IMG/VR virus record: IMGVR_UViG_3300049489_000353
DNA from: an uncultured virus (IMG/VR IMGVR_UViG_3300049489_000353)
Lineage: Duplodnaviria; Heunggongvirae; Uroviricota; Caudoviricetes
Reading direction: 5' to 3' (one strand)
DNA: 64,000 bases
In this document: in pieces, positions 45,656 to 63,733 of the stretch
Position numbering within the stretch: position 1 is the first letter of the stretch
Layout of the letters: each line of letters begins with the position of its first letter
Translations under genes and position numbers: made by a program
Notes under the pieces: model-generated
The model's input: only the letters and a program-made list of their open reading frames with translations
Told to the model about the DNA's origin: nothing
Databases searched by the model: none

Positions 45656-45659
45656 AGCC

Positions 45660-45989: not shown

Positions 45990-46021
45990 ACAAGTCCCAC
46001 CCAGCAATGGGTGGGCAGTAT

Positions 46022-46228: not shown

Positions 46229-46256
46229 AACCCGCTCTTGATTGGGCGGGTTTTTT
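46229..46256 (+). terminator. Intrinsic terminator at the end of array 1
   Basis: AACCCGCTC-ttgatt-GGGCGGGTT then TTTT. Confidence 0.85.
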
Positions 46257-48544: not shown

Positions 48545-49618
48545 ATGGCGTTTTTCGGTGTAACTGTTGAAGAAATTGAAACCGTCAACCCGATCGAGGG
48601 TGCTGACCGTATCCAAGTCGCTACGGTAAAGGGACTTGTATTCAACTTCGTCATTGCCAAGGACAGCTTCAAGCCTGGTGACAAGGTTCTGTACTTCCCT
48701 ATCGATAGTCTGTTGCCACAAGCACTTGCAGAGAAGCTTGGCGTTGCTGGCAAGCTGGCGGGAAAGAACAAGGATCGTGTCAAGACGGTCAAGCTTCGTG
48801 GCGTTATGTCACAAGGTATTGTCGGTAACCTTGATATCATTGGTGACATGAGTTGCGAATCGTTACTTGGTGTCCCTCGTCTGCCATCTACTGAGGAAAT
48901 TACGGCACACTTGGGTGTTACCAAGTACGAGCCGCCAGAAGTCGTTTGCCAAGGTGGGAAGCTGGTTCGTCACGCCGAAGGTGTTTCGACCTACGACATT
49001 GAAGGTGCTGACCGTTACCCCGTCGTGGTCAATGAATTACTGAACCAGCAAGTCTACATCACCGAAAAGGTCGAAGGATCGAACTGGTACGGTGGCGTTG
49101 ATGCTGCTGGCGAATTCGTCGTTGGTCAGCGGAGCGGTGCGATCATTCCCGACGATGGAAATGTAACGCACACATGGTGGACTGTTGCTGCCATGCAAGG
49201 TCTGCTTGACGCTGCCGCTGCTATTCGGCGTGACAAGTACCCAGGCAAGAGCGTCATCATTCGTGGTGAAATCGCTGGTGGAAGCATTCAAGGAAACATC
49301 TACAAGCTGCCGAAAATGCAAATTTTCGCGTTTGATATTCTTGTCGATGGTCAATATGTCGATGCGCTGACATTCCTTGCACTGACCACGGAATACAAGA
49401 TTCAGACGGCTCCTATGTTGTCTCTCAGCAAGACGCTCCATGAGTGGCTTGATGGTAAGACCGTCAAAGATGCTTCTCATGGTAAGAGTCTGCTTGGTGA
49501 TACGATTCGTGAAGGAATCGTTATCAAGCCTATCGTTGAGCAGTACAGCAAGGTGCTTGGTGGGCGTCTGTTCATCAAGCAGCGTGATCCGATTTACTTG
49601 GATAAGACAGGAAACTGA
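48545..49618 (+). CDS. RNA ligase, DRB0094 family
   Basis: N-terminal tRNA-binding-like IEGADRI...VKLRG.MSQG; TEKVEGS, IRGE, AFDI, REGIVIK. Confidence 0.88.
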   Translation: MAFFGVTVEEIETVNPIEGADRIQVATVKGLVFNFVIAKDSFKPGDKVLYFPIDSLLPQALAEKLGVAGKLAGKNKDRVKTVKLRGVMSQGIVGNLDIIGDMSCESLLGVPRLPSTEEITAHLGVTKYEPPEVVCQGGKLVRHAEGVSTYDIEGADRYPVVVNELLNQQVYITEKVEGSNWYGGVDAAGEFVVGQRSGAIIPDDGNVTHTWWTVAAMQGLLDAAAAIRRDKYPGKSVIIRGEIAGGSIQGNIYKLPKMQIFAFDILVDGQYVDALTFLALTTEYKIQTAPMLSLSKTLHEWLDGKTVKDASHGKSLLGDTIREGIVIKPIVEQYSKVLGGRLFIKQRDPIYLDKTGN

Positions 49619-50346
49619 TGAAAGTCATATTCAAAGTTTTAACTGGTTCGCGTTTATATGGTCTGGATTTACCAACATCCGACTATGATATAAAAGCTAT
49701 TGCGCTACCCAGCAAAGAAGATTTGCTGGGTATGGAAGATACTGCGCGTGAACATTGGGATGATGTCAGTATCGATCCGCCAGGTGATGTTGTGGTGTAT
49801 TCGATTACGAAATTCCTTAAATTGTTCATGACAGGTAACCCAACCGTTACGGAATTGATTTTCGTAGATCCACAATTCTATCTGATGCCATCCTCTTCTG
49901 TGTGGATGGACATGGTTGCTTTTTGTAAAAATCGTCTGATATCCGACAAAGCGATTAGCTCATACCGAGGATATTTGTATGATCAATATAATCGCGTAAA
50001 GAGTCGTAAAGCACAAAACAATCGTGAATGGATGATCGAGAAGTATGGTTTCGATATCAAATGCGCAAGTCATGTGTTCCGGCTTGCCAACCAAGGAGCC
50101 GAATTAATTGTGCATGGAACATGTCATCCAACCATGATTGGATTCACCCGTGATGTGTGTATGAGCATCAAAAAAGGTGAAAAAACATACGATGAAACTA
50201 TAAATCTTTTGGACATTGCTTTGCAACATTTCGAAAAGAGTATTGTTTTGTCGAAACTTCCTCCATTTGAAAAAGAATCGATGGAGCGATATGTCAACGA
50301 TTTCGTTTTCAATATTCACTACCGTGTTGTTATGGGGGCACTATGA
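49618..50346 (+). CDS. Pol-beta superfamily nucleotidyltransferase (YcgL/RlaP-like)
   Basis: GSRLYGL...SDYD, GNPTVTE, K.ASH.FRL. Confidence 0.8.
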   Translation: MKVIFKVLTGSRLYGLDLPTSDYDIKAIALPSKEDLLGMEDTAREHWDDVSIDPPGDVVVYSITKFLKLFMTGNPTVTELIFVDPQFYLMPSSSVWMDMVAFCKNRLISDKAISSYRGYLYDQYNRVKSRKAQNNREWMIEKYGFDIKCASHVFRLANQGAELIVHGTCHPTMIGFTRDVCMSIKKGEKTYDETINLLDIALQHFEKSIVLSKLPPFEKESMERYVNDFVFNIHYRVVMGAL

Positions 50347-53274
50347 GCAGAATCTTCATCGTCCAAGTCGAATGTGTTGATTCAGCCGACAACTACACCG
50401 TCGAGGTCCGTGCCAAGGACAAAGACGAGGCTGCGCATACTGTATATCAGAATCTTCACTTGTGTGAAACCACGGGTCATGTGTATCCGAAGTATAAAAC
50501 CAAGAAAAAGAAAAAGTAAGATGCGTAAACAAGTTACATTTCTTAATCGAAAACCATTGTGTGATAATCACAACACATGGGTATGTTCGTTGTGCTACCC
50601 GTTTGCTCTTGAGATAGGCAAGGTATATAGTGCTGGGTCGCTCATTTATATGAGAAACCATCCGTTGGACAAGCTTGCCCCTAGACAATATGGAAATGGT
50701 ACCTACGCTCTATTACAAGGGCAGGGACATAGGGATGACGAATTGGCTTTTCTTACCGAAAAGCCAATGGTTACATATAATAAAAAGTATAAGTATTTTG
50801 ATATGGTTCCTGGTTACATTGAAATGTGTATGAGCGATGCTGTGGATATATTTCAGTGCTACATCGAAAAGAAGTTTATCAAACCAGATTCAACGCCACA
50901 TAATTTTCAATATTTTTTCATTACGAAACTTGCTAAACTTGTCAGTACCTTCGAAAAGAAACACGGGAATATTGAAAGTTATTACGAGAAATTTTGTAAA
51001 GAGCGAGAGAAGTGGGTTAATGATCGTATAGACAAAAACGTAAGGAAGTAACATGTCAGAAAAAACATCATACGCAACGACATCAACTGGTTTGGGGTAT
51101 CGTGTCACATATAGTAGAGAACATGGAAATTTGAAGTTGTATTTCATGGCTCCTGGTTCACATTCAGAAACTCTTATATGTCTCAACTGTTTATCACCAG
51201 CAGATGTTAGCGATTTAGGTGACTTAATTGCTGCTTCTATCAACACCACCAAGCGATCAAAGAGGAAATAACATGAAACCCAAGAAAGTAACGAAAGTAA
51301 AGAAATCACGGGAACCCAAGGAGCCTAAAGAGCCGCGTTTCCTGGCATTCGTCAAGTTGGCTGATTGGATGACTGACGAGCAACGAAACCACTATGTCGA
51401 AATATTCGGAAGCGCAGCCGCTTTGCTATACTTGGGTGAAATACCGAATATGCGCGGTCATTGTGTCATATACAGTAAAGACACGAATAAGATGTTCGTC
51501 GGCTATCACATCGAAAACTTCGTTGAAATGTCGGAGGAAGAAACATGAAAATCCTTTACGATACTAAAATTCCAAAGTCGCGTAAGCGGGCAAATCAACT
51601 CACTGGAAGCTGTTTCAGTTTTCACTGGAACGGCATCGTTAAAGCTATTCAGCATTACCGAGTGAAGCATGGTTATGCGAATGCTGATGAAGTTGAGAGG
51701 AAAATAGAATCGATTCGTATTACCGACGATGGTATTCAATTTGTTTACGAGGAAGGTGATATCTAGATGAAAAAAATCGTCCTGGCTCAACTAGTAGAAT
51801 TATACGAGAAGAAAGACAAAATGCTTGCTGAAATCAATAGAAGTACATGGGACGATCCATTTACTGGTGAGCCAGAATGTCGTGCGAAGCATCGCATAGG
51901 TCTTGTTGAGAAATTGCGCGACATAGAAAAAGAAATATCTACACTAAAAGGAACACCGTCATGAAACCTAAAAAGTCAAAAAAGCCCATCGTCAAGGGAC
52001 CAGTTGACGGGAACATTTTCTTCATCGCTGGTGCGTGCAGAAAAGCATTGGTTAATGCTGGACTGAAAGACCAGGCGGAAAAAATGACCACCGAAGTCAT
52101 GAACGCTGGCAGCTATGACGAGGCACTACAAGTCTGTATGAGATATGTGGAGTTTGATTTATGAAGAAATCAAAACTGATTCAAGATATGCAACATATGA
52201 GTGACGATGACGAAATCGTCGTTACACTAAAGCAGCCAAGTGTCGGTGGTCACGCATCCGTAGCAGTAAGCAGCGTCGGACATGGTTTTGATTGGGATGC
52301 TGGGAAAATTCTACTCTATACAGAAAATCCCGTCGTTACCCAAGAGCATCTTGATCGTATTCAAGAGTATTGTCGGGCATATGAAAAGTTGCTGTATCTG
52401 TATGCGATGGAAAACAATCTACCATTCAACGGAGTACCCTTGATGGGTTCCAAGGCATGTCCGAAAGGATCGACTGCCCGCGTCTTCAAGGAATATATGA
52501 AAAAGCATGTCAACAAGTACCTTGGAAACGAGAAGTAAGGAGGCACCATGAGCGACGGTGAAGAATGGAAGAATAGCCCCGATGACCATGATGCTGGCGA
52601 GGAATGGAAGCCCGAGGTCAAAAAGAAGAATAAGTGTAGAGGAATGTATTTCCGTCTGCGTGGTGAAGTCATCGAACCAGTTACTGACCAAGCTGATATA
52701 TCAGAAGCTTTTAAAATGGTAAATAGACGGGTCGCCTTGGATGAATTGGGAAATGACTCAAAGGTTTCAACGGTATTTTTAGTAATAGACCATAACATGG
52801 GTTGTTCAGAGACTCCCATATTGTTCGAAACCATGTCATGGTATAACGGTGAAGAATATGAATGTAAGCGATATCCGACCGTTGAAGCGGCTTTAACGGG
52901 TCATCGAGAATCCGTTGAGGCACTTAAAATAGCTATGAAAAATAAGCTATGAGCTATCAAGAGCAGCTTGAGAAGCGATGCGAGGAATTAGAAGAGCTAT
53001 TGGCGGTTGCCCAACAGCGCGGCAGTAATGAAATTAATGATTTATTCATCAGATACCTGGCAGTTACACTCCAAGCTGCTTTTAAATTCAAAGATATACA
53101 CACCGAAGATGATCGGCGTGATTTTATTCGTAAAAAGATCAAACTTATAAAAGTTCTACAAGAGAAGTCTCGGGACTTTAAAATGGGTGATACGGAGAAG
53201 ATGATCAAAGAGGAAATGAAAAACCAATACATCGTGCCATAGATTTCATATAAATAGTTGTATTGGAGAAATCT

Positions 53275-54306
53275 ATGTCAGACATTCTTTACAAGAAATT
53301 GTGCGAGTCATGGGATCAGATGGAGCAACCAAAGCTTATTACCGAAGCCGAGGTTAGAGCAGCTTTCCCAACAGCTTCCGATGGTCACATTCAAGAAGTG
53401 ACTCGATTCTGTGAAGGTTATTTGAAGTTCGAAGAGTTGCTTTTAAATAACTCAGAACAATACCTTGTTGAGCGTTTTGCTGGCGATGACCAGACACTTA
53501 AGCCAGGTGGCGCGGGCGCTGCTTTCCCAAGTAATGCGTCCGATCCAAATTTTGATCCAGAAGCTACCGTTGGAAAGCCAGAAGTACCTAAAGCTGGCGA
53601 TCAGAAAAAGCCAGGCAAGATGCAATGGTTCTCGAAGCTGAAAGATTTCGCCAAAAAAGTCAAAGATGTTTACACACAAGTTCCCAAGAAAAAGGTTCTC
53701 GCTATTTTGGCGGCTGGTCTTGTTATTTCTGCCATTGCTCCACAATTCCCACTCGTTGGCGCATTAGCCAAGGTCGCATTTGGTGGATTCAATATGTTCA
53801 AGGGTGGAAAGAGTTTCTGGACAGAATTCAAGAAAGAAAAGAAGGACCGTAGTAGCGTCAAGGTTGTTCTTGCGGTTCTCCAAGCTGCGCTTGGTGTCGT
53901 AAGTGGTATATCTGGCGCATCGGGAATTGTCGATCAGATAACAGCATTGAAATCACAAGTAGCAAGTGCTGCTGGTGAAGCTGGACAAGCTGCCGCAGCA
54001 CCAGCCGCTGGTGGCGCAGCCGCTCCTGCTGCTGACGCTGCTGGTGCAGCTACATCGTATGCTGGTAAAGCATCAGATACATTGGATAAGATTCAAAAAG
54101 TATTCTCAACAGATCCAGAAAAGGGAAAGATGCTGTTGCAGAAGTTGGGCGATGCCATGGCTTCGGCTGCATCAGAAGGTAAACTTACTGATGCCGAAGC
54201 ATTGAAAGTCATTGGCAAGGTTCTTCCCGCCGACAAGGCTGACGCCTGGTGGGATATGGCTAAACAAGCTTTTGATATGATGACAAAAGCTAAGGGCGGC
54301 GGCTAA
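53275..54306 (+). CDS. Late-promoter protein with hydrophobic and Ala/Gly-rich segments (possible virion protein)
   Basis: TATAAATA at 53249; N-terminal LCES. Confidence 0.55.
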   Translation: MSDILYKKLCESWDQMEQPKLITEAEVRAAFPTASDGHIQEVTRFCEGYLKFEELLLNNSEQYLVERFAGDDQTLKPGGAGAAFPSNASDPNFDPEATVGKPEVPKAGDQKKPGKMQWFSKLKDFAKKVKDVYTQVPKKKVLAILAAGLVISAIAPQFPLVGALAKVAFGGFNMFKGGKSFWTEFKKEKKDRSSVKVVLAVLQAALGVVSGISGASGIVDQITALKSQVASAAGEAGQAAAAPAAGGAAAPAADAAGAATSYAGKASDTLDKIQKVFSTDPEKGKMLLQKLGDAMASAASEGKLTDAEALKVIGKVLPADKADAWWDMAKQAFDMMTKAKGGG

Positions 54307-54915
54307 TTCTTACTCTTAAGAAACGCATCAGCCTCTTGGTTGATGCTTTCTAACTTTCTGTCCGCATCGGACTTGTCAGCATCGGCTTTGCGCTGCTTCA
54401 AGTGGCTTTCCATGCTGGACATGATTTCATCGGTCGAGTTGCTCATGGTTTTCTTCGCATCGGGGGTGCAGTACCACCCATATGCAGCGGAACCAGCGAC
54501 AACGCCGACCGTGAAGAAGAGGACGATGAAGAAGGTACGCATAGTGTTTCTCCTTGCGTGCATCCTAGCACCATTACTAAAAAAATCTATAATGTGAGAC
54601 TACCCCAGCTACGAGTGTATCACACATCACAGCGTGGGGGCATTGATGAATGCGCTTAGGGACTTCACTGTTCGTTCAAGCCGAGCATTCTCTTTTTTTA
54701 GATGTTGTATCTTCAATTCTGTTTCTTTTTTGGCTTGTTCTTCTATAAGCCGTAACTCTTCTTGAGCTTGGCATAAAAGCACCTTCTTATCGTGTTCGGC
54801 TTTCAGCCATATAAAACTAACAGAGAAAATAAACAGTGCTGAGAGTACATAATACATTGCCGTATTATGCGTTTATTTTTTATACAACAAGAGGGAATTT
54901 CTATAAATAGTCTAT

Positions 54916-55920
54916 ATGTCGGATAATCTCTATAACCGTTTATATGAGTCTTATCAAGCCATGGAGCTTGATGAGTTGCTGATTCATGGCGATCCAAAAA
55001 CGGGAAAGCATGTCATTGCACACAAGCAACACTTATGGGTTCTTCCAGATGACATTCCGAGAGAGACAGCCAACCAGATAGCAGAAATTTTATTGCCATC
55101 TTCATATGATAATGAAAATGTTCCGTTTGATGATGGGACACCACCAGAAACAAGTATTCATGATGTCACCCAATTGATCAATGACGCTGACCGCTCTGAC
55201 ATTCTCATGGGAACATTAAACAATGGCGTGTTGTTCTTGAATAATGCGGGACACTTCAAATTTGATCCGAAGTCATCGCTCTTGGTCAAGAAAGTAGCCA
55301 ATGCGTTGAAGGTTAAGAAAGTCACCTACCAAGATGACTTAGAAGGAAACAGCGAGATTTCAACACCTAGAAAAAAGTTGACGGCACAGATTCCCGATAT
55401 TGCATTCCACGGCACATCGTTGAAGTATCTTGAAGATATTCTCAAAGTTGGTTTGGAACCAAGGGGACATCAGAGCAACTATGAGAAGCAGGGCATCTAT
55501 CACGATGACAAGATTTTCTTCGCTACTCGATTCGGTGAGGCAAATCACCATGCTATTCATACAGGCAACTTGACAAAAAACTACCCTATCGTCTTGGAAA
55601 TGTTCATTCCCGATAAGAATCTCGTCATTGCTGACTATGATGTGGATATGCACGGTGGTGAAACGACTTATGACGCACCAAGTCGCAAGTCACATACCAA
55701 GTATGACACCGAAAAGAGTTTTGCGTTGAGTAAGGAATTCGGTGTGTATGGGTATAAAGGGAAGATTTTGCCCCAGCATATTCGTTTCGTCTACATTCTC
55801 TTCAATGAAGAGGCTTACGATGCCACCATCAAGGACTACAAGAAGTTCAGCCCAAAGAAGCTTCGCCAGTTCCTTGACCGCCATGGATCGTTTGATGAAT
55901 TGCAATACTTTGTCAGATAA
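54916..55920 (+). CDS. Putative ADP-ribosyltransferase-fold protein
   Basis: AFHGTS...ILKVGL.P...IFFA; TATAAATA at 54902. Confidence 0.55.
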   Translation: MSDNLYNRLYESYQAMELDELLIHGDPKTGKHVIAHKQHLWVLPDDIPRETANQIAEILLPSSYDNENVPFDDGTPPETSIHDVTQLINDADRSDILMGTLNNGVLFLNNAGHFKFDPKSSLLVKKVANALKVKKVTYQDDLEGNSEISTPRKKLTAQIPDIAFHGTSLKYLEDILKVGLEPRGHQSNYEKQGIYHDDKIFFATRFGEANHHAIHTGNLTKNYPIVLEMFIPDKNLVIADYDVDMHGGETTYDAPSRKSHTKYDTEKSFALSKEFGVYGYKGKILPQHIRFVYILFNEEAYDATIKDYKKFSPKKLRQFLDRHGSFDELQYFVR

Positions 55921-55937
55921 CGAATTAAAAAATATTG

Positions 55938-55997
55938 TTGACTCGTAAAATTCTATGGTATACTAAAACCCAGATAGACGAAGATGCTCTTTAAAAA
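55938..55997 (+). promoter_or_regulatory. Promoter with boxA-like element upstream of array 2
   Basis: TTGACT-N15-TATACT; TGCTCTTTAAAAA at 55985. Confidence 0.65.
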
Positions 55998-56098
55998 GCC
56001 TACGGAAAATACCTCTTGCATGGGCAAGATTTTCTGCTAGACTGTGCCCAGACGCCTATAAATAACCTTCAGAGAGAAACACTCACAAAGACTATCCC

Positions 56099-56227
56099 AT
56101 GACGAACACCCTCAACATCCTGAGCAAGCGCGAGCAGAAGTGGCTATCCCAGCCATTATCGAGCCGCCCCGTCATGGCTCGCCATAATCTCTTTAATATC
56201 ACCGATATTACGGAGAGTCCAGGCTAG
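56099..56227 (+). CDS. Leader peptide 2, MTNTLNILSKREQKWLSQPLSSRPVMARHNLFNITDITESPG
   Basis: 42 codons plus TAG; last codons carry the antiterminator strand GTCCAGG; SD weak. Confidence 0.7.
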   Translation: MTNTLNILSKREQKWLSQPLSSRPVMARHNLFNITDITESPG

Positions 56228-56254
56228 AGAACAGGAGAAATCCTAAACCCTCTC

Positions 56255-56291
56255 GAACCCTGGACCCAAAAAGTCCAGGGTTCTTTCTTTT
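56255..56291 (+). terminator. Attenuator terminator, array 2
   Basis: GAACCCTGGAC-ccaaaaa-GTCCAGGGTTC then TTTCTTTT. Confidence 0.88.
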
Positions 56292-56395
56292 ACAACTACA
56301 TATCTGTGGAAAACACAACAATTCCCGTGAAATGCACGGTAAGCCACCGTAGACCGCTACGGCACGGTAAGTCTAAAACACGGGAGTTGTGGTTT

Positions 56396-56483
56396 GGAAG
56401 GCAAAACGAACAGGGTCCGTCGTTCTTTGCTAAAGAAATGGGGCGCTCTTGCGCCTGTGGTTCAAGTCCACTACCTTCCGCCA
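56396..56483 (+). tRNA. tRNA-Ser(GCT), 8/4-type fold
   Basis: ttGCTaa loop, long arm, 4-bp T stem, GCCA. Confidence 0.65.
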
Positions 56484-56577
56484 GAAAGTCTAGCTGCTAT
56501 TCCCGAGGCAGGACGAATAGACTAAAATTCACGAAGCTCTGATGTCTCGTCAATATCATCTTCGTGGTCGGGAGTAT

Positions 56578-56667
56578 GGAACAGAGAAGCATCGGGGAGA
56601 TGCGTTCGCTTGGAAAGCGAAAGGGCGGTGCAAATCGCCAGAGTTTCGATTACTCCTTGTTCCGCCA
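56578..56667 (+). tRNA. tRNA-Ser(GGA), 8/4-type fold
   Basis: ttcgc-ttGGAaa-gcgaa, long arm, GCCA. Confidence 0.7.
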
Positions 56668-56832
56668 GAGAGTGGCAAATCGGATGCAAACGCCGAGTGC
56701 AGGCAACCCAAAAGGTGAGGCACTAGTCTATGTAGTAAGACCCACTCGTTACCAGAGCCGGTGACAAGCATAACCAACTGCTTCTTTTCCCCCATATGGG
56801 AAATGTAGTTTGATCTAAAATGCCGGCAGTAT

Positions 56833-56907
56833 GCCCGTGTCGTATATGTGGTAATACGCGAGCCTGAAGAGTTCGATCAACCGATTCAAACGCGGTCGCG
56901 GGCACCA
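56833..56907 (+). tRNA. tRNA-Phe(GAA)
   Basis: Cloverleaf. Confidence 0.8.
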
Positions 56908-57019
56908 AAGGTAGATTGTAGGTATGCTTCCCGATTAGGTATGCAACCTTCTAGGCGACTCTGGAGCCTCTCACTTTGAGTGAGTCTCATCGCAGGATGG
57001 GGAATAAACTGGAGGGTAT

Positions 57020-57112
57020 GCAGCCGTTCGCGTAGTCCGGTCGAACGCACCTGACTCTTAATCAGGATGGGTTACTCCCACATCGTAGGTTCAAATCCTA
57101 CTGGCTGCACCA
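57020..57112 (+). tRNA. tRNA-Lys(CTT), long variable arm
   Basis: ctCTTaa; body similar to 36947-37038. Confidence 0.8.
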
Positions 57113-57117
57113 AAATT

Positions 57118-57191
57118 CGCCTGCTCGTACAACGGCAGTATATTCCACGGTCGATGGAAAGAAGGCGGGGTTCGACTCCCCGGCTGGGCGA
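57118..57191 (+). tRNA. Degenerate tRNA-Asp(GTC)-like
   Basis: ttcca-cgGTCga-tggaa, D and T arms, no CCA. Confidence 0.45.
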
Positions 57192-57198
57192 ATCGTAT

Positions 57199-57275
57199 GG
57201 GTTGCAAGCATAAATGGAAGGATGCAATCGCCTCTTAAGCGATAGAGCAGGGTTCGAATCCCTGGCGACCCACCA
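57199..57275 (+). tRNA. tRNA-Lys(CTT)
   Basis: Cloverleaf. Confidence 0.85.
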
Positions 57276-57366
57276 AAAAGCGCGAATTGACTTGACAACG
57301 CTACGGTAATCCGAGTCGCTTTAGCGGGTGACTACGATGCACGGTCGGTGTTCGCGCCGGTTTTAT

Positions 57367-57446
57367 AGCGGGTTCGTATACTAGGTGTTTACGCTCGTCT
57401 GTTAAACGAGATAAGGTTTTGGGTTCGAATCCCCCGCCCGCTGCCA
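57367..57446 (+). tRNA. tRNA-Asn(GTT)
   Basis: ctcgt-ctGTTaa-acgag, GCCA. Confidence 0.75.
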
Positions 57447-57507
57447 AACTTGATTAAAAATTATTTCAACTTGTGTTATAATATAAATACGAGTAAGGGA
57501 ATAAAAT

Positions 57508-58041
57508 ATGTCAAGATTATCAGATAATGTAAAAGCATGGAGACGGAATAACAAGTTAAAAATTATAGAAGCAATGGGTGGTAAATGTGTATGTTGTGGA
57601 TACCACAAATCTACATTCGCTTTAAGTTTACATCACATAGATCCAAATGAAAAGGATATATCTTTTAACCGAATTAGGGCTAATCCAATTGCTTGGAAAA
57701 AAATAGTTGTGGAATTAAGAAAGTGCGTGCTTGTTTGCTCAAACTGTCATATGGAAATACATGAAGGTATAACAAATATTCCTAATGATGCACCTAAATT
57801 TAATGAAGATTACTATACGGTTAAAGAAAAGGAAGATAAGTGTCCAGTGTGTCAGAAAAATAAAAGCATATATAGATTAACATGCTCACGCACATGTGCA
57901 AGAAAATTATCATGGAAAACAAATTGGGAAAATATAAATCTGAAAAAAGAATTAGAGACTAAAAGTATAACTCAATTAGCAGATGAGTTAAACATATCTG
58001 ATTCAGCTATTCATAAAAGATTGAAGAAATATCATTCCTAG
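57508..58041 (+). CDS. HNH endonuclease with C-terminal HTH
   Basis: GGKCVCCGY, LHHIDP, CVLVCSNCHMEIH. Confidence 0.85.
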   Translation: MSRLSDNVKAWRRNNKLKIIEAMGGKCVCCGYHKSTFALSLHHIDPNEKDISFNRIRANPIAWKKIVVELRKCVLVCSNCHMEIHEGITNIPNDAPKFNEDYYTVKEKEDKCPVCQKNKSIYRLTCSRTCARKLSWKTNWENINLKKELETKSITQLADELNISDSAIHKRLKKYHS

Positions 58042-58125
58042 GCAACATGACAGGACATGTACCGTGCTGTTAACACGGAGCGAGCGAAAGCCGATAAGGG
58101 GGTTCGAGTCCCTCCCTAGGAGCCA
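58036..58125 (+). tRNA. tRNA-Asn(GTT), long variable arm
   Basis: ccgtg-ctGTTaa-cacgg, GCCA. Confidence 0.75.
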
Positions 58126-58128
58126 CAT

Positions 58129-58205
58129 GACACATTAGCTCAATTGGATAGAGCAATAGACTACGGATCTATAGGTTGTAGGTTCAACTCCTACATGTGT
58201 CGCCA
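58129..58205 (+). tRNA. tRNA-Arg(ACG)
   Basis: Canonical cloverleaf. Confidence 0.92.
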
Positions 58206-58207
58206 GT

Positions 58208-58329
58208 AAGGTTGTTTTCAGCAAATTAAATCCAAAACTAACTGATAATTAGAAGGTCTTGGTTCGAATCCAAGCTCGCCTTAAGCAAGCGATGTAGTGT
58301 AACGGCAGCACAAAATAAGGAACAACCTG
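58208..58329 (+). ncRNA. Family-1 RNA enclosing a permuted tRNA-Ile(GAT)-like domain
   Basis: AAGGTTGTT-ttcagcaa; anticodon arm, T arm, closed acceptor, D arm; AACAACCTG. Confidence 0.65.
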
Positions 58330-58356
58330 TAACGCCCCAACGCTAAAGGGGCACAT

Positions 58357-58430
58357 GCCCGGTTCATCTAATGGAAGGATCCAACGCTACGAACGTTGGC
58401 ATTTAGGTTCGAATCCTAAGCTGGGTGCCA
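58357..58430 (+). tRNA. tRNA-Arg(ACG)
   Basis: Body nearly identical to 38705-38779. Confidence 0.88.
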
Positions 58431-58516
58431 AACATCGGAAGTTGCTGGTTTAAGTCCAGCCTAGAAGGCGAAAGCATTCTAAGTAGTTTTAAATGGATAA
58501 AATATCCGCTGCGTAT

Positions 58517-58592
58517 GGTGATATTGATGTAGTGGCAGCATCATCGGTTTGTGACTCCGAAAGTGACGGTTCGATTCCGTCATACCACCCCA
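58517..58592 (+). tRNA. tRNA-His(GTG)
   Basis: ttGTGac loop, C73. Confidence 0.8.
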
Positions 58593-58728
58593 CATGAGCA
58601 TGTACTAGTCTTGCTCTAGGAATGACTATTGCCTATATGCGCCAGGAGTGCGCGAGAAAGAAAGTCAGGCTTGGCAACCTAATGAAAGCGCGGATTAATT
58701 ACCCGTTGCTCAACAAGTGGCTTGTTAT

Positions 58729-58814
58729 GGTGGGTGAAGTCCAACGGCAGGACAACAGATTGTGGCTCTGTGCTAGAAATAGCCTTGCGGGTTCGAATCC
58801 CGTCATCCACCCCA
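58729..58814 (+). tRNA. tRNA-His(GTG), long variable arm
   Basis: G-1/C73, GCTA-gaaa-TAGC arm. Confidence 0.8.
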
Positions 58815-58819
58815 TTTTC

Positions 58820-59064
58820 AAGGTTGGTTACAGCAATTCAAACGGTATAAACGACGCTCCTTCGGGATAGTTGCGAGAGTGGTTCAACTCCGCTCGATCA
58901 TACACGAAAAAAGTAAGTGTATGGAATACCCAACCTGTCTTTTTTCAAGGATGCCTACAGCAATTCAAAGCACACATACTAAGCCGTAGGTCACGAAGTT
59001 CGAATCTTCGTCGCAGCAACCATGCTGCGTAGCTCAGTGGTAGAGCAACGAAAAGTGCATCCTG
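58820..59064 (+). ncRNA. Two tandem family-1 RNAs (58820-58937, 58947-59064) with permuted tRNA domains
   Basis: Second copy: T arm, CGCAGCA-acca-TGCTGCG, TAGCTCAGTGGTAGAGC. Confidence 0.7.
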
Positions 59065-59075
59065 TTTTTTTTTAT

Positions 59076-59161
59076 GCGCGAGTGGTGGAACGGCAGACAC
59101 ACTACCTTGAGGTGGTAGCGGGAGCAATCCCGTGAAGGTTCGAATCCTTTTTCGCGCACCA
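59076..59161 (+). tRNA. tRNA-Leu(GAG)
   Basis: Class II cloverleaf. Confidence 0.92.
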
Positions 59162-59168
59162 TTTTCAT

Positions 59169-59245
59169 CTAGCCGTGGGATAGCAGTTTCTGTCCACTAG
59201 TCTTGGGAACTAGGGGTGCTGGTGCGACTCCAGCCGGTTAGACCA
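59169..59245 (+). tRNA. tRNA-Pro(TGG)
   Basis: Cloverleaf. Confidence 0.82.
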
Positions 59246-59371
59246 AACAATGGGGAGTTCCAACGGTGGTACGCTACCTATTGCCGTAGAGTAGCAACAG
59301 GGTGGAGAGAGGCGGCAAACCTTACCACGCCTGATTAGTCGGTTCGATTCCGACGCTCCCGACCCATTCAT

Positions 59372-59446
59372 GCTCGCATCTTCCATGTATTAGGAAACCC
59401 GATTCTCAATCGGATAAACAGAGTGAAAGTCTCTGTGCGAGTACCA
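59372..59446 (+). tRNA. tRNA-Glu(CTC)
   Basis: ttCTCaa loop, divergent T loop. Confidence 0.75.
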
Positions 59447-59489
59447 AAAGCAATGTAACGATTGAATCAATTTTTTTATAAATAAAGGT

Positions 59490-59867
59490 ATGACACAAGA
59501 CAAAAGTAGCGAATCGGATAAACTTTTGCCTACATCGGTCCCTCCTATTGAAGAGATAGCTCATAGGACGGGAAGAATACCTAAAGGATATGTTTGCCCA
59601 TCGTGTGGTCATCTTGCCGTGGATGAGGACGAGTTGCTTGGTTTAACTTGTCCAAAATGCCTACAACAGTGGTTGGTTGATCAGCAAGTATCACAGATGG
59701 TGTCCATAAAGGAGATGGCAACAGATCGGGACAGCGCCTTAATGAAAACAGTAAAGGTAGGCAATGAACCGATGGGCAAACATCCTTATGATGAAACGAC
59801 GAAGATTGTGGCTGAAAAAGAGAAGAAAAAGAAAACCGAATCCGACGATAGGATTCCTGGTTTGTAA
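59490..59867 (+). CDS. Zn-ribbon hypothetical protein
   Basis: CPSC...CPKC; TATAAATA upstream. Confidence 0.6.
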   Translation: MTQDKSSESDKLLPTSVPPIEEIAHRTGRIPKGYVCPSCGHLAVDEDELLGLTCPKCLQQWLVDQQVSQMVSIKEMATDRDSALMKTVKVGNEPMGKHPYDETTKIVAEKEKKKKTESDDRIPGL

Positions 59868-59868
59868 T

Positions 59869-59945
59869 GTCCTTGTGATGGAATTGGCATACATACTACG
59901 CTTAGAACGTAGGTCTTGTGGGTTCGACTCCCACCGAGGATACCA
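59869..59945 (+). tRNA. tRNA-Leu(TAG), short variable loop
   Basis: ctacg-ctTAGaa-cgtag. Confidence 0.85.
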
Positions 59946-59948
59946 AAT

Positions 59949-60023
59949 GCGCGACTAGTTTAGTGGTCTAAACACTTGATTGACATTCAAGAGATTCTGG
60001 TCCGATTCCAGGGTCGCGTACCA
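59949..60023 (+). tRNA. tRNA-Val(GAC)
   Basis: Cloverleaf. Confidence 0.85.
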
Positions 60024-60026
60024 ATT

Positions 60027-60082
60027 AAGGTTGCTTCCAGCAAATTAAAAAATTACTATGTTAAGTAAAAAACAGCAACCTG
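60027..60082 (+). ncRNA. Family-1 RNA, short form
   Basis: AAGGTTGCT-tccagcaa...AGCAACCTG. Confidence 0.6.
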
Positions 60083-60087
60083 TTTAT

Positions 60088-60159
60088 GGGGAACTAGTCC
60101 GAGAACAGCTAGGTCATCGAAACCTAGAAAGAATGGGTCAGCACCATGAGTCCCCGCCA
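60088..60159 (+). ncRNA. Degenerate tRNA-like RNA (TCG loop)
   Basis: GGGGA/TCCCC-GCCA, ctaggt-caTCGaa-acctag. Confidence 0.45.
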
Positions 60160-60163
60160 ATTT

Positions 60164-60240
60164 GGGTGTATAGTGTAGAAGTTTCTGCACACTTGATTGT
60201 CAATCACGAAGTATGGGAGCGTTACCCATTACACCCGCCA
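60164..60240 (+). tRNA. tRNA-Asp(GTC)
   Basis: ttGTCaa loop, G73. Confidence 0.75.
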
Positions 60241-60243
60241 GAT

Positions 60244-60319
60244 GGCTCCATCGTATAGTGGATTATTACGTTTCCCTGTCACGGAAAAAATGCGAGTTCG
60301 ATTCTCGCTGGAGTCGCCA
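60244..60319 (+). tRNA. tRNA-Asp(GTC)
   Basis: Cloverleaf. Confidence 0.88.
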
Positions 60320-60412
60320 AAAAGTGGTGTGCGCCACTCATCGCCGCACAGCGATGTTAAAGCAATGAGTAAAGGCTTTATAGACACTCAGCTTGGAATC
60401 TAAAGTTTCCAT

Positions 60413-60484
60413 CGGGTGATAGTTAAGAGGTTATAACGCCAGTCATTAGACTGGAATCATCGGTTCGAATCCGGTTCATCCACC
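60413..60484 (+). ncRNA. tRNA-like RNA with shortened anticodon loop
   Basis: ccagtc-atta-gactgg; D and T arms intact. Confidence 0.5.
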
Positions 60485-60488
60485 TTTT

Positions 60489-60563
60489 GGGGACATAGTT
60501 CAGTGAGAGAACAATCGCTTCGCACGCGATAGACTTCGGGTTTGATTCCCAATGTCTCCACCA
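60489..60563 (+). tRNA. tRNA-Ala(CGC)
   Basis: G3:U70, ttCGCac. Confidence 0.82.
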
Positions 60564-60573
60564 AATAAGCGAA

Positions 60574-60656
60574 TGGAAATCCTACCGAAGTTCCAGACTT
60601 TGAATCTGGCTAAACGGGTAGCGTAAAAAGCGCGGCATACAGCAGGAGTAGGTCCG
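60574..60656 (+). ncRNA. Family-2 RNA displaying an isolated Gln(TTG) anticodon arm
   Basis: TGG-AAAT-CCTAC...ccaga-ctTTGaa-tctgg...GTAGG-T-CCG. Confidence 0.5.
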
Positions 60657-60670
60657 AGTAGCTTATATAT

Positions 60671-60757
60671 GGAAAGTTAATCACTCAAGGAGTGACTTCG
60701 TTTCGAAAACGAATGGGCGGCATCGCCGCTATGGTGCGAGTCCATAACTTTCCGCCA
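60671..60757 (+). tRNA. tRNA-Ser(CGA), 8/4-type fold
   Basis: 8-bp acceptor GGAAAGTT/AACTTTCC, 4-bp T stem. Confidence 0.78.
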
Positions 60758-60761
60758 ACAC

Positions 60762-60835
60762 TGGATCTTGATGTAAGGGCTGCATAACTGACTCTGAATC
60801 AGTTCGTGGAGGTTCGAATCCTCCAGATCCAACCA
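60762..60835 (+). tRNA. tRNA-Gln(CTG)
   Basis: Cloverleaf. Confidence 0.9.
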
Positions 60836-60838
60836 TAT

Positions 60839-60912
60839 GGGGCAATCGTATATCGGTAATACACTAGCATGGCATGCTTGAAAGCAGGGTTCGATTCCCT
60901 GTTGCTCCACCA
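60839..60912 (+). tRNA. tRNA-Ala(GGC)
   Basis: G3:U70, atGGCat. Confidence 0.85.
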
Positions 60913-60923
60913 GTTCAGTAAAA

Positions 60924-61062
60924 TGGGAATCCTATCCGTGCTATGTCCAAAGTAGCATGCTAGTGGTTTGACTCCACAACGCCCGCCAATGGGCGTAAAT
61001 GGCAACCGAGTTGCTGGTAGACTAAACAAGTCGCTCAAGTTGAATTGAGAGAAGTAGGTCCA
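60924..61062 (+). ncRNA. Family-2 RNA enclosing a permuted tRNA domain (CCA loop)
   Basis: TGG-GAAT-CCTAT...T arm, ACGCCC-gccaat-GGGCGT...GTAGG-T-CCA. Confidence 0.6.
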
Positions 61063-61078
61063 AAGTAACTGAATATAT

Positions 61079-61152
61079 GCTGAATTCGGATAGTGGGAAT
61101 CCGCTCGTTTCGTAATCGAGATACGGTTGTTCGATTCAACCATTCAGCACCA
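61079..61152 (+). tRNA. tRNA-Thr(CGT)
   Basis: Cloverleaf. Confidence 0.85.
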
Positions 61153-61157
61153 TATGC

Positions 61158-61231
61158 GCTGCTTTCGGATAATGGCATTCCGCCTGCTTGGTATGCAGGA
61201 TACGCTAGTTCGATTCTAGCAAGCAGCACCA
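61158..61231 (+). tRNA. tRNA-Thr(GGT)
   Basis: Cloverleaf. Confidence 0.88.
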
Positions 61232-61235
61232 TCAT

Positions 61236-61309
61236 ACGTAGATCGTACAATGGCAGTACCTCAGATTCCAAACCTGATGATGTGGGTTCGATTCCTACTC
61301 TACGTGCCA
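61236..61309 (+). tRNA. tRNA-Trp(CCA)
   Basis: Cloverleaf, G73. Confidence 0.88.
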
Positions 61310-61519
61310 GAGCAGTTGCTGAAATGACATGAAAAACTCATCGTAGGCAATTGATAACGCGGCTAACCGCAGTCTAACACCGCTATACAATAAAGTTAAA
61401 CGCCATCCTCGTAGGAGGACGCGGACTGCACCATCTTTAAGTGCCTTAAAAGCAGCTTCGGAAACGAAGAGCAGATTATCAACCTTGGTTCCTGCTAAAA
61501 CAAAACAAGGTCCATTCAT

Positions 61520-61596
61520 GGTCACATAGCTCAGTACGGCAGAGCATTCGTCTGATACACGAAAGGTCGAAGGTTCCATTCCTTCTGTGACTACCA
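61520..61596 (+). tRNA. tRNA-Ile(GAT)
   Basis: Cloverleaf. Confidence 0.88.
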
Positions 61597-61599
61597 TAC

Positions 61600-61677
61600 G
61601 GACATCAGCTTCGCCGGTTGCGGAGGTTCGCCTGATAAGCGAAATTAGCATAGGTTCAACTCCTTGGGTGTCCACCA
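61600..61677 (+). tRNA. tRNA-Ile(GAT), divergent D arm
   Basis: ttcgc-ctGATaa-gcgaa. Confidence 0.7.
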
Positions 61678-61823
61678 AGTAGCAATCGTCTAAACATAAA
61701 GACACTTCAAGGGGAAATAAAAAGCCTAACTATGTGGGTTGAAGTCCCACGATTAAGTTCCCAGGACGGGTAGTTATCTTGAAGATGAATGTGGCTTATG
61801 TAGCCGTCTTGCTACATTTTCAT

Positions 61824-61898
61824 ATCTGTGTGGGATAGTGGTCTGTCCACTTGTTTTGGGAACAAGGGGTGTTGGTTCGATTCCAACCATGGATACCA
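61824..61898 (+). tRNA. tRNA-Pro(TGG)
   Basis: cttgt-ttTGGga-acaag. Confidence 0.82.
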
Positions 61899-62012
61899 AG
61901 TCGTTAGTCCTGAAATAAAACTTACGGTTAAAAACCAAACAGTTCCGGTCTGTTAGTTCACAGTCAGAGTCGAGAAACTAACCGCTGCGCCGAGCGTTCT
62001 GACAGGCGTTAT

Positions 62013-62086
62013 CAGGCATTAGGATAATGGTAATCCACTAGCTTCGGGAGCTAGGGACGGCAGTTCGATTCTGCCATGCTTGACCA
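62013..62086 (+). tRNA. tRNA-Pro(CGG)
   Basis: Cloverleaf. Confidence 0.88.
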
Positions 62087-62091
62087 GTTAT

Positions 62092-62166
62092 CGTGGTGAC
62101 GTTCAATGGATGGACGGCTGTTTCATAAGCAGCTTCAAGTAGGTTCGATTCCTATCGCCACGACCA
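62092..62166 (+). tRNA. tRNA-Met(CAT)
   Basis: gctgt-ttCATaa-gcagc. Confidence 0.8.
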
Positions 62167-62167
62167 T

Positions 62168-62484
62168 GAGTAAATCAGACAATCGCTAGAGGACTCCAAA
62201 CTCTAGAGGAAAGTCGGGGCACCAAACAAAAATCTACTGGTTAACGACCAGCACACTTTTCAGTAGGTGTGAGGAAAGGGCAGTAAGAAATAAACCGCCG
62301 ATGGCTTCGCAAGAAGATCAGGTAAGGGTTGAAAATTCGGCTTAAGAAACCGGACTTCTCATAGCGATATGAGTCGAGTGTAACCCCTAGATGGTGCAAG
62401 GCAGTAATTGCCGCTTGAGGTCAGCAGTAATGCTGATCCTAGACAAATGATTGTCCTAGACAGAACCCCGCTTACCGATTTACT
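62168..62484 (+). ncRNA. rnpB: RNase P RNA (bacterial type)
   Basis: P1 AGTAAATC/GATTTACT; GAGGAAAGTCGGGGC and ACAGAACCCCGCTTA P4 signatures; GGTAAGGGT. Confidence 0.9.
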
Positions 62485-62557
62485 TTACTGATTTTTTATG
62501 CTATAATGGTTTACCGTATCTTATACTTTGCCGTATAAATACAATTAGGAGATCATT

Positions 62558-63085
62558 ATGGCAAAACCTCGTACATTTACCGATGAACAATTTATAGATG
62601 TCGTTAAAAATTCTTATTCGATACGAGAATGTCTACGAAAATTAAAGCTTAAAACTACTGGTGGTAATTATAAGTCTTTTTATTGGAGAGTTAAAAAAAT
62701 GGGCATTAAAACTGACCATTTCGTGGGACAGTCTCATATGAAAGGTAAGAAAAATCCATCTCATATTCAGATACCTCTCTCTGATATATTAAAAGAAAAT
62801 GTATTTTATCAAAGTCATAGATTAAAATTAAGATTGATAAAAGTTGGATTGAAAGAACATAAATGTGAAATTTGTCGCAATACGGAGTGGAATGGGGCGG
62901 CTATTCCTCTTGAATTGGATCATAAAAATGGTGTACATACCGACAATAGAATAGAAAATATACAATTAATATGTCCAAATTGTCATGCTTTAACTCCAAC
63001 ATATCGGAGTAAGAATATAGGTAAACATAATGTGTCCGTAGCGCAATCGGCAGGAGGCGATAGTTTTAAAAACTATACAGTGTGA
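62558..63085 (+). CDS. HNH endonuclease
   Basis: CEIC...LELDHKNG..TDNRIEN.QLICPNCH. Confidence 0.9.
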   Translation: MAKPRTFTDEQFIDVVKNSYSIRECLRKLKLKTTGGNYKSFYWRVKKMGIKTDHFVGQSHMKGKKNPSHIQIPLSDILKENVFYQSHRLKLRLIKVGLKEHKCEICRNTEWNGAAIPLELDHKNGVHTDNRIENIQLICPNCHALTPTYRSKNIGKHNVSVAQSAGGDSFKNYTV

Positions 63086-63109
63086 GTTCGAATCTCACCG
63101 GGCACACCA
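63032..63109 (+). tRNA. tRNA-Leu(TAA), short variable loop
   Basis: atagt-ttTAAaa-actat. Confidence 0.85.
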
Positions 63110-63115
63110 TTTCAT

Positions 63116-63191
63116 GGGCGTTTAGTTCAGCGGCTAGAATGTCGCTTTCACATAGCGAAGATCGTTGGTTCGATTCCAACAACGCCTACCA
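63116..63191 (+). tRNA. tRNA-Val(CAC)
   Basis: Cloverleaf. Confidence 0.88.
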
Positions 63192-63335
63192 GGGGACTTG
63201 GATTAAGATGGAAAATCAACCTAGTTGGGGCGGTAAACGCAACAAAGACAGGTGCCATAAAAGGAGCTTACAAGCTGCTACCGCGAGGGTGTGGTGACAT
63301 AAGCTATGTCGGTTCGAATCCGATAGTCTCCACCA
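63192..63335 (+). ncRNA. Ala-acceptor tRNA-like RNA with large central insert
   Basis: GGGGACT/AGTCTCC-ACCA (G3:U70), D and T arms. Confidence 0.6.
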
Positions 63336-63340
63336 TTCAC

Positions 63341-63419
63341 GGGGTTGTAGCAGAATTGGCAAATGCGGTATGCTCAAACCATACGACTTATGTGGGTTCG
63401 AATCCCACCAGCCCTACCA
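63341..63419 (+). tRNA. tRNA-Leu(CAA), short variable region
   Basis: gtatg-ctCAAac-catac. Confidence 0.82.
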
Positions 63420-63560
63420 AATGATCCACTGGCGCAAGCCCAGCGGGGGACATCCACAAAATATTCGCCAGTAACGAATACTACGGAGAGTCCGCTGCCG
63501 TGCCGTGTAAGGACGGGGATCGTTATCAAACCACGTTGTGTTTTCCACAGATGCCCTCAT

Positions 63561-63637
63561 GTGTCTGTAGCCCAATCGGCAGAGGCGTTGCTCTCAGAAA
63601 GCAAATGATGGTGGTTCGAATCCACTCAGGCACACCA
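63561..63637 (+). tRNA. tRNA-Leu(CAG), short variable loop
   Basis: ttgct-ctCAGaa-agcaa. Confidence 0.85.
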
Positions 63638-63641
63638 ACAT

Positions 63642-63716
63642 GCCGCTATCGTTCAACGGATAGGACAAGACCCTCCGAAGGTCAAAATCTAGGTTCAATT
63701 CCTAGTAGCGGTGCCA
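63642..63716 (+). tRNA. tRNA-Arg(CCG)
   Basis: Cloverleaf. Confidence 0.88.
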
Positions 63717-63733
63717 TCTGTTATACTATATGT

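Follow-up and report, generated by a model that had tools for sequence, protein, structure and literature searches.

A candidate leader-peptide attenuator at the head of a phage tRNA array, with codons that match the array's own anticodons

How does a phage that carries dozens of transfer RNA (tRNA) genes determine when they are transcribed? To our knowledge, the regulation of large phage tRNA sets is essentially unknown, and textbook accounts place the control of bacterial tRNA genes at promoters and not at attenuators. Here, the question is raised by a 64,000-nucleotide stretch of DNA from an uncultured virus of the Caudoviricetes (IMG/VR record IMGVR_UViG_3300049489_000353), which we refer to as the window. 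The window is part of a large phage genome with 42% G+C and with long open reading frames (ORFs) essentially all on the + strand, and it contains two tRNA arrays. Directly ahead of the second (array 2), positions 55938–56291 hold a promoter (P1), a 42-codon ORF (leader 2) and an intrinsic terminator (terminator 2). With a probability of roughly 60%, we read this region as a ribosome-mediated leader-peptide transcription attenuator that gates array 2 by sensing the supply of the array's own tRNA species.

Leader codons and array anticodons

Leader 2 follows P1, and the first tRNA begins 169 nt beyond its end. With standard wobble pairing, array-2 anticodons read 40 of its 42 codons (39 of 41 without the ATG), the exceptions being CCC and GGC. 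The tRNA genes were called with ARAGORN at default and relaxed thresholds; roughly 65 are divided by wobble class across 35765–46221 (array 1) and 56396–63716 (array 2), and the two arrays sum to a near-complete tRNA set. Array 1 holds tRNAs with uridine at anticodon position 34 (U34) for Thr, Ala, Glu, Gln, Lys, Arg-TCT, Gly-TCC, Val-TAC, Ser-TGA and Ile-TAT, together with Tyr, Cys and Gly-GCC tRNAs, two CTA-anticodon tRNAs and a transfer-messenger RNA (tmRNA), and it is ended by a strong terminator. The anticodons of array 2 are almost all G34 or C34, and its only ordinary U34 tRNAs are Pro-TGG, Leu-TAG and Leu-TAA.

As a baseline for the match of leader 2, we used the codons of 52 + strand ORFs with lengths of 100 amino acids or more, leaving out 11 ORFs inside the arrays or behind 55930. 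Array-2 tRNAs read 66% of these baseline codons, and random draws of 41 codons gave 27.0 ± 3.0 matches, with 39 or more in 9 of 1,000,000 draws. None of 7,760 real 41-codon gene segments equalled the leader. The match is confined to the reading frame, as the other forward frames of the same DNA give 24 and 25 of 41, and it ranks first among the 272 ATG-initiated ORFs of 30–60 codons on both strands of the window. When only default ARAGORN calls are counted, the match is 35 of 41, a value reached by 1,366 of 1,000,000 draws (p = 0.0014).

The codons that leader 2 avoids follow the same division. It contains no AGA, ACA, ATA, GCA, TCA, CAA, AAA, GGA, GAA, Tyr or Cys codons. All six of its Lys, Glu and Gln codons end in G (gene frequency 0.39; p = 0.0037), and its only A-ending codons (CTA, CCA, TTA and CCA) are those with U34 tRNAs in array 2 (p = 0.0008). 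Of the 28 anticodon species in array 2, the leader samples 23 (p = 0.002 in a length-matched comparison). When length is not matched, it ranks 7th of 272 in species coverage, and the leader before array 1 ranks 18th of 414; the ORFs above or level with the two leaders are mostly longer.

Array 1 is preceded by a shorter ORF, leader 1, with the opposite preference. Thirteen of its 15 counted codons are read only by array-1 tRNAs and two are read by array 2, which places it first among 414 ORFs of 12–25 codons for the fraction of array-1-only codons, and it samples 12 of 19 array-1 species (p = 0.0008). Cross-tabulating the two leaders by array-exclusive codons gives 13 and 2 for leader 1 against 1 and 22 for leader 2 (Fisher p = 2.5e-7). 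A MAFFT alignment of the two leaders is uninformative beyond a common 11-mer that precedes both.

Could leader 2 have arisen by accident, as an ORF in G+C-rich leader DNA in which A-ending codons are scarce by chance? The ORF has 54% G+C, well above the window's average, array 2 reads about two-thirds of gene codons in any case, and the feature was picked post hoc. Against this stand the rarity of equal draws, the counts of 24 and 25 in the other frames and the first rank in the window, together with the mirror-image leader that ranks first before the other array. We consider chance very improbable and the feature real. A preliminary description of the locus, made by a model from the DNA letters, had counted the same 40 codons with the same two exceptions, listed the same absent codons and argued from the reciprocal match that chance was unlikely; our recount was identical, every absence was verified in the ORF, and the Fisher test that it proposed returned the reciprocal split given above.

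Terminator, antiterminator and ribosome position

Terminator 2 has an 11-bp stem (56255–56283) with seven G-C pairs, ends 105 nt before array 2, is the strongest on the + strand of the region and is the first-listed terminator-like site in 46000–64000. The longest G+C-rich stems on the + strand between 34.5 and 64 kb are the terminators of the two leaders and the one that closes array 1 (9 pairs); the remaining terminator-like sites there have at most 7 pairs. A promoter scan found no promoter-like site between terminator 2 and the first array-2 tRNA. The last codons of leader 2 contain GTCCAGG (56217–56223), which is complementary to CCTGGAC (56259–56265) within the terminator stem (Table 1).

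To relate this complementarity to the position of a ribosome, we folded the leader RNA only up to the terminator loop, without the 3′ arm, while placing a 30-nt ribosome footprint at each codon. The 5′ arm of the terminator is predicted to pair with 56217–56223 when the A site lies anywhere from the start codon through codon 36, and the pairing is lost only when the A site is on the last six sense codons (codon 37 of 42 onward) or the stop. These folds and the complementarity itself agree with the preliminary description, which had GTCCAGG competing for the terminator arm. Leader 1 behaves similarly in the folds, its 5′-arm partner (35453/57–35462) lying at and behind its TAG stop.

A third leader of this kind stands at the head of the main tRNA array of G001, a distantly related contig described below, and the three share one geometry. 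The predicted antiterminator duplexes have free energies of −12.2 kcal/mol (leader 2), −9.8 kcal/mol (leader 1) and −17.1 kcal/mol (G001), with p-values of 0.008, 0.02 and 0.0003 against random 27-nt windows. In all three, nothing else on the stretch from ORF to terminator pairs with the 5′ arm as well as the segment at the stop codon does, and stop and stem are separated by 27, 29 and 28 nt, respectively. One study reports that a translated gene ending only a few base pairs upstream represses an intrinsic terminator, whose efficiency returns with distance (PMC4824070); the 27–29-nt spacing is compatible with this distance effect.

All three leaders end in TAG, a stop codon that ends only 6 of 63 ORFs in the window and 22 of 238 in G001. 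This raises the possibility of a translation-coupled switch that works in reverse or by another route; for example, array-1 CTA tRNAs could read the TAG, so that the ribosome runs through the terminator and prevents its hairpin, creating a positive-feedback latch. The recurrence of the rarest stop (about 0.1 each) in three of three leaders, the two CTA-anticodon tRNAs in array 1 and a frame that stays open behind the TAG past the terminator's 3′ arm in all three leaders are in its favor. However, the open frame lacks significance, since four of the six other frames likewise run open through the terminators. In addition, G001 has a TAG-ending leader with no CTA-anticodon tRNA found by ARAGORN; opening TAG adds little to ORF lengths, and those of G001 give no sign of TAG recoding. 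We hold such a latch to be quite unlikely.

The two amber-anticodon tRNAs of array 1 are among four genes (44615–44688, 44926–45002, 60163–60239 and 60413–60484), a set that also includes a tRNA-like gene whose anticodon is TCA and whose D stem has an odd length of 7 bp, as well as a tRNA in which the anticodon loop is 6 nt long and contains TT(A). Despite these four genes, genes in the window make normal use of all three stop codons.

Table 1. Features of the two leader regions and their tRNA arrays (window coordinates; MFE, minimum free energy)
Feature	Position	Strand	Details
Leader ORF 1	35405–35455	+	MRRTYIASCQKGEGTA + TAG; AAGGA Shine-Dalgarno upstream
Leader 1 switch	35455–35516	+	antiterminator GAGGGGTTGT 35455–35464; stem 35485–35508; T-run to 35516
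tRNA array 1	35765–46252, including closing terminator	+	tRNAs to about 46221; terminator 46229–46252
Promoter P1	55938–55964	+	TTGACT 55938–55943; 15-nt spacer; TGg-TATACT (extended −10); TATACT 55959–55964
boxA-like 13-mer	55985–55997	+	TGCTCTTTAAAAA; 1 mismatch to the E. coli rrn boxA consensus
5′-leader hairpin	56000–56040	+	in MFE and centroid folds; inner stem 56014–56029, then T-run
11-mer	56061–56071	+	AATAACCTTCA; exact copy before leader 1 at 35383–35393
Leader ORF 2	56099–56227	+	42 codons + TAG stop; ATG start; reads MTNTLNILSKREQKWLSQPLSSRPVMARHNLFNITDITESPG
Antiterminator 5′ strand	56217–56223	+	GTCCAGG; codons 40–42, ends 2 nt before TAG
Intrinsic terminator 2	56255–56291	+	11-bp stem GAACCCTGGAC / GTCCAGGGTTC; loop CCAAAAA; tail TTTCTTTT
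Downstream motif	56292–56309	+	ACAACTACATATCTGTGG; start of tRNA precursor; no other window match with fewer than 2 mismatches
tRNA array 2	56396–63716, running to window end	+	about 37 tRNA genes
tRNA-Ser(GCT)	56396–56483		ARAGORN, relaxed threshold only; plausible type-II cloverleaf, CCA end
tRNA-Ser(CGA)	60671–60757		ARAGORN, relaxed threshold only; plausible type-II cloverleaf, CCA end

Relatives, upstream elements and genomic setting

The leader 2 peptide has two near-identical database relatives (93% and 88%); relative to it, they show one codon gained, one codon lost and a small number of substitutions. The listed public sequencing runs with matching sequence include no RNA run; we compared the window with contigs from four DNA runs, one of which (X3) contains a close relative, roughly 93% identical to the window, whose 3-nt insertion falls inside the leader ORF. 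Both indels inside the ORF are multiples of three, and the eight listed outside it in the X3 relative are all 1 or 2 nt, which argues that leader 2 is translated. The X3 relative has a different stem at the terminator, in which three pairs are compensatory. At its P1, the hexamers are unchanged, the spacer carries five substitutions, and the sequence just downstream carries five substitutions and a 1-nt deletion.

The distant relative G001 is a 331,849-bp IMG/VR contig with 35% G+C, the one related record whose DNA could be retrieved. The 334-residue protein encoded upstream of leader 2 led to it (46% identity), and it has only 10 window ORFs in common. Its main tRNA array (17 ARAGORN tRNAs and an intron-bearing Pro-TGG) is headed by a promoter, a 49-codon TAG-ending ORF (175566–175715) and a terminator nearly identical to terminator 2. 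Behind the G001 terminator lies the motif ACAAnTAnATATCTGnGG, the same as at 56292–56309 in the window. Directly behind the TAG, CCCCAGG pairs with CCTGGGG of the terminator arm, so that GTCCAGG/CCTGGAC in the window is replaced by CCCCAGG/CCTGGGG in G001, a matched difference in both strands of the antiterminator. The similarity between the two leaders in peptide and ORF DNA is not significant (p = 0.07–0.39), and we therefore claim homology only for the terminator and the downstream motif, not for the ORFs. Between the two phages, the architecture is conserved and the peptide sequence is not.

Does the G001 leader track its own array? That homologous leaders should do so was an expectation of the preliminary description, and it holds in part. 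In species coverage, the G001 leader samples 16 of 17 species of its own array (p = 0.003–0.0045; tied first of 627 ORFs), and it includes Tyr, Cys and TCA codons, which are absent from leader 2 and belong to the array-1 class in the window. In codon counts, the expectation fares poorly: own-array codons number only 31 of 48, against 39 of 48 for the window's array-2 set. The G001 leader also has five Asp, three Gln and two Thr codons without any G001 tRNA.

G001 contains exactly two copies of the motif ACAAnTAnATATCTGnGG (175782–175799 and 265424–265441), both just ahead of tRNA clusters, and one of them follows a plain promoter directly, with no leader in between. In both phages, the motif marks where tRNA precursors begin at their 5′ side, and it may serve in processing or in binding. 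In the window, the roughly 85-nt spacer that follows (56311–56395, + strand) folds into a long outer stem with inner hairpins (56288–56398, −34.2 kcal/mol, z = −2.8), and its RNA has no Rfam match.

These comparisons bear on whether the region is instead an independent small unit, either a gene for a 42-residue protein or a small RNA, that ends at its own terminator. The array would then be fed by leaky read-through or unrecognised promoters, and the codon bias would reflect expression at a time when array-2 tRNAs dominate. A strong promoter, an ORF kept in frame and an efficient-looking terminator would equally describe a normal small gene, and the second G001 cluster, with its motif behind a plain promoter, implies that tRNA precursors in this lineage can start without a leader. 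On the other hand, the peptide has no family beyond its near-identical relatives and is not conserved in G001, and the gap between terminator 2 and the first tRNA has no promoter-like site. The small unit also leaves two things unexplained: the reciprocal codon split between leaders 1 and 2 and, in three leaders, a segment centred on the stop codon that is complementary to the terminator arm. We judge it unlikely.

When 1.84 billion representatives were searched exhaustively with phmmer, no leader 2 peptide family emerged beyond the cluster of close relatives; a repeat protein (P0004) was rejected as spurious, its similarity consisting of 15 weak stretches in an unrelated 3,667-residue protein. 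An alignment of the leader peptides found nothing in viral_contigs or genome_contigs. The 334-residue protein, alone or aligned with its G001 homologue, retrieved only G001 from viral_contigs and nothing from genome_contigs, and a search with a 343-residue protein gave no relatives. Besides G001, matches to the terminator pattern in viral_contigs were three unrelated terminators behind a structural gene, and the X3-type terminator pattern had no match there. The single motif-pattern match in metagenome_contigs, which has no tRNAs, was set aside as chance. Among GenBank phages, none matched either leader region, or the leader of G001, at the DNA level. The cultured, KVP40-like Vibrio phage VH7D, which encodes a distant relative of the 334-residue protein, has a 30-tRNA array that is headed by T4-type promoters and intron-bearing tRNAs; in the 900 nt read at the head of this array, no leader ORF with a terminator was seen, and the device is therefore not universal.

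Intron-like inserts are a side observation shared by these phages. Four G001 tRNA genes (183007–183123, 197791–197907, 198848–198953 and 275593–275713) carry anticodon-loop inserts, as do tRNAs at the head of the VH7D array (35–48 nt overall). In three of the four G001 genes, the insert resembles a tRNA T-arm, with a GGTTCGA-type hairpin.

Several elements lie between P1 and leader 2. P1 itself was read from the sequence; our consensus promoter scan, which accepted only 16–18-nt spacers, omitted it. The 11-mer AATAACCTTCA, which the preliminary description had placed before both leaders, is present there in exact copies, each after a −10-like hexamer and ahead of ..GAAACAC, and a third exact copy lies on the minus strand (53412–53422). 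The surrounding 56048–56095 has no listed change in the X3 relative, and this region may be a second promoter or transcript start, or a translation-initiation region. Further upstream, the boxA-like 13-mer is also present as described. Its positions 55985–55996 are identical in the X3 relative between variable flanks; matches to boxA with up to two mismatches are not rarer than chance in the window, and neither leader 1 nor the G001 leader has the element. Its presence is suggestive of a putative function that is accessory at most. The hairpin that follows contains an inner stem (56014–56029) that our terminator scan counted as terminator-like.

The leader 2 RNA is unusually stable (−96 kcal/mol, z = −5.8 versus shuffles), and one may ask whether the region acts as a structured non-coding RNA with a protein, a tRNA or Nus factors as its partner (boxA-type processive antitermination or a riboswitch-like sensor), the ORF being incidental. 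Folding far better than shuffles, a boxA-like 13-mer conserved in the relative just behind P1, and a leader without a Shine-Dalgarno sequence would fit such an RNA. It would fit less well with a codon match that exists in frame only and with indels that keep the frame inside the ORF but not outside it. No Rfam family, the T-box included, matches 55938–56291 at E-values up to 0.1, and G001 has an ORF of similar size even though the ORF sequence is unconserved. In our estimate, an RNA of this type is a rather improbable explanation.

The surroundings of the leader include further genes for RNA. Within array 2 lies a full-length bacterial type-A RNase P RNA (62167–62490; 190 bits, model positions 1–367); it was not found in G001 and is thus unusable as a lineage marker. 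The array-1 tmRNA (42561–42925; 117 bits) encodes the tag peptide DDHIDYTGVENAGFALALAA, and an Rfam abiF RNA motif lies between two array-1 tRNA genes (44214–44250; 50.3 bits against a gathering score of 37). Four kinds of tRNA in the window that are not Ser, Leu or Tyr are 90–94 nt long (Arg-CCT, Ile-TAT, Lys-CTT and Asn). Between the arrays, 48545–50346 encodes an RNA ligase (PHA02142 OB fold and RNA_ligase domain) and an RlaP-type RNA-repair nucleotidyltransferase, and a DHH/DHHA1 phosphoesterase is encoded at 33874–34698; beside so many tRNA genes, these enzymes look like a tRNA-repair toolkit. The 334-residue protein directly upstream of leader 2 (54916–55920) has distant homologues (25–29% identity) in 51 Vibrio phage records, KVP40-like phages among those listed, and one carries the annotation poly(ADP-ribose) polymerase catalytic domain protein.

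A proposed switch and its relation to known systems

Several observations weigh against an attenuator. The codon statistics are post hoc, computed on a feature that had already been picked out, and four of the 39 matches in leader 2 (AGC, AGC, AGT and TCG) need the two tRNA-Ser genes that were called at the relaxed threshold only. Taken alone, the match of leader 1 to array 1 is modest (p = 0.014–0.043, depending on the tRNA set and the wobble rule). The G001 leader is only 102nd of 627 ORFs in own-array codons (p = 0.006–0.018) and matches the window's array-2 set at least as well. Neither leader 2 nor the G001 leader is preceded by a Shine-Dalgarno sequence, which is present at about half of first-ATG gene starts in both phages, and the full-length equilibrium fold pairs the start codon of leader 2 with 56170–56177 in an 8-bp stem. 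The stability of the leader RNA fits a kinetic, single-round design but would fit a structured non-coding RNA too. The antiterminator has 7 bp against 11 bp in the terminator, and the switch must therefore be kinetic. Finally, there is no anti-antiterminator (1:2) hairpin, and the ribosome-free fold up to the loop keeps the antiterminator; untranslated transcripts are consequently predicted to read through, making the gate leaky.

These points notwithstanding, the anatomy of the locus, the codon statistics, the conserved frame and the covarying stems favor an attenuator, and from them we infer that leader 2 is translated, that the switch runs in the direction given below and that tRNA supply is its signal. 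Transcription would start at P1, or at a second start near 56071, and a ribosome would then translate the 42 codons, which sample 23 of the array's 28 anticodon species. With fast decoding, the ribosome would reach the TAG while the polymerase is still making the terminator and would cover GTCCAGG; the 11-bp terminator would then form, and array 2 would not be transcribed. If any of the sampled tRNAs is scarce, the ribosome would lag, GTCCAGG would pair with CCTGGAC of the 5′ arm, and, with this arm sequestered, the polymerase would continue into array 2. Because the antiterminator is predicted to form without a ribosome, timely completion of the leader would mean termination and anything else would mean read-through. 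Consequently, this giant freshwater phage probably makes array-2 tRNAs only when ribosomes decode the matching codons slowly.

Leader 1 would work alike for array 1 with the complementary codon class, and the two leaders would form two demand-driven channels for phage tRNA supply. The preliminary description had proposed the same tRNA-availability sensor at both arrays; codon reciprocity, switch geometry and the conservation of frame and terminator favor that proposal and make translation-dependent termination in response to tRNA supply the probable function. A more speculative extension, to which we give little credence, is a two-channel sensor (A-ending codons with U34 tRNAs versus C-, G- and T-ending codons with G34 and C34 tRNAs) that detects which part of the host tRNA pool is failing, for example after the action of host anticodon nucleases, and transcribes only the matching set; the phage's own suppressor tRNAs, once accumulated, could read the shared amber stop, so that ribosomes run through the terminators and latch both arrays open.

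The proposed attenuator resembles the leader-peptide attenuators of enterobacteria (trpL, hisL, leuL, thrL, pheL and the multivalent ilv leaders) in its promoter-proximal short ORF, its intrinsic terminator and an antiterminator that uses the terminator's 5′ arm; in those systems too, the position of the ribosome picks the hairpin and the codons of the ORF name what is sensed. It differs in that the regulated genes are tRNAs rather than biosynthetic enzymes, in that leader 2 samples 23 tRNA species, mostly once or twice each, rather than a run of one or a few codons, and in being phage-encoded and duplicated for two wobble classes. Unlike the trp type, no 1:2 anti-antiterminator was found in leader 2, and read-through is expected of untranslated RNA. 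In the pheST operon, which encodes phenylalanyl-tRNA synthetase, the pheM leader likewise applies attenuation to a component of the translation apparatus by sensing the charged tRNA that the operon's product serves; there, a single amino acid is sensed, the regulated product is a protein, and the operon is on the host chromosome. T-boxes bind uncharged tRNA directly and do not need a ribosome. As in a T-box, tRNA status would set the choice between terminator and antiterminator upstream of translation-related genes, but for leader 2, the evidence points to codons read in frame, and there is no Rfam match. Processive antitermination through boxA and Nus factors operates at rRNA operons and lambda nut sites; ahead of leader 2, a boxA-like 13-mer, accessory at best, lies just behind the promoter of a long untranslated RNA operon, and it does not account for the ORF and its codon match.

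In a literature search covering titles and abstract openings, we found no description of leader-peptide attenuation of tRNA genes. What the window contributes is a pair of reciprocal leaders split by wobble class and a distant relative with a covarying antiterminator; as the two leader/array pairs occur in one genome, they are mutual controls and provide a clean test case. If the proposed attenuator is correct, leader codons that sample the tRNAs encoded behind them would give a direct, self-calibrating readout of decoding capacity, and amino-acid-sensing attenuation would extend to the translation apparatus itself. The device would also be a compact, testable part for the synthetic control of tRNA supply. 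For the phage, it would explain the timing of tRNA production, with a bearing on host takeover, on codon-usage mismatch and on escape from tRNA-cleaving defences.

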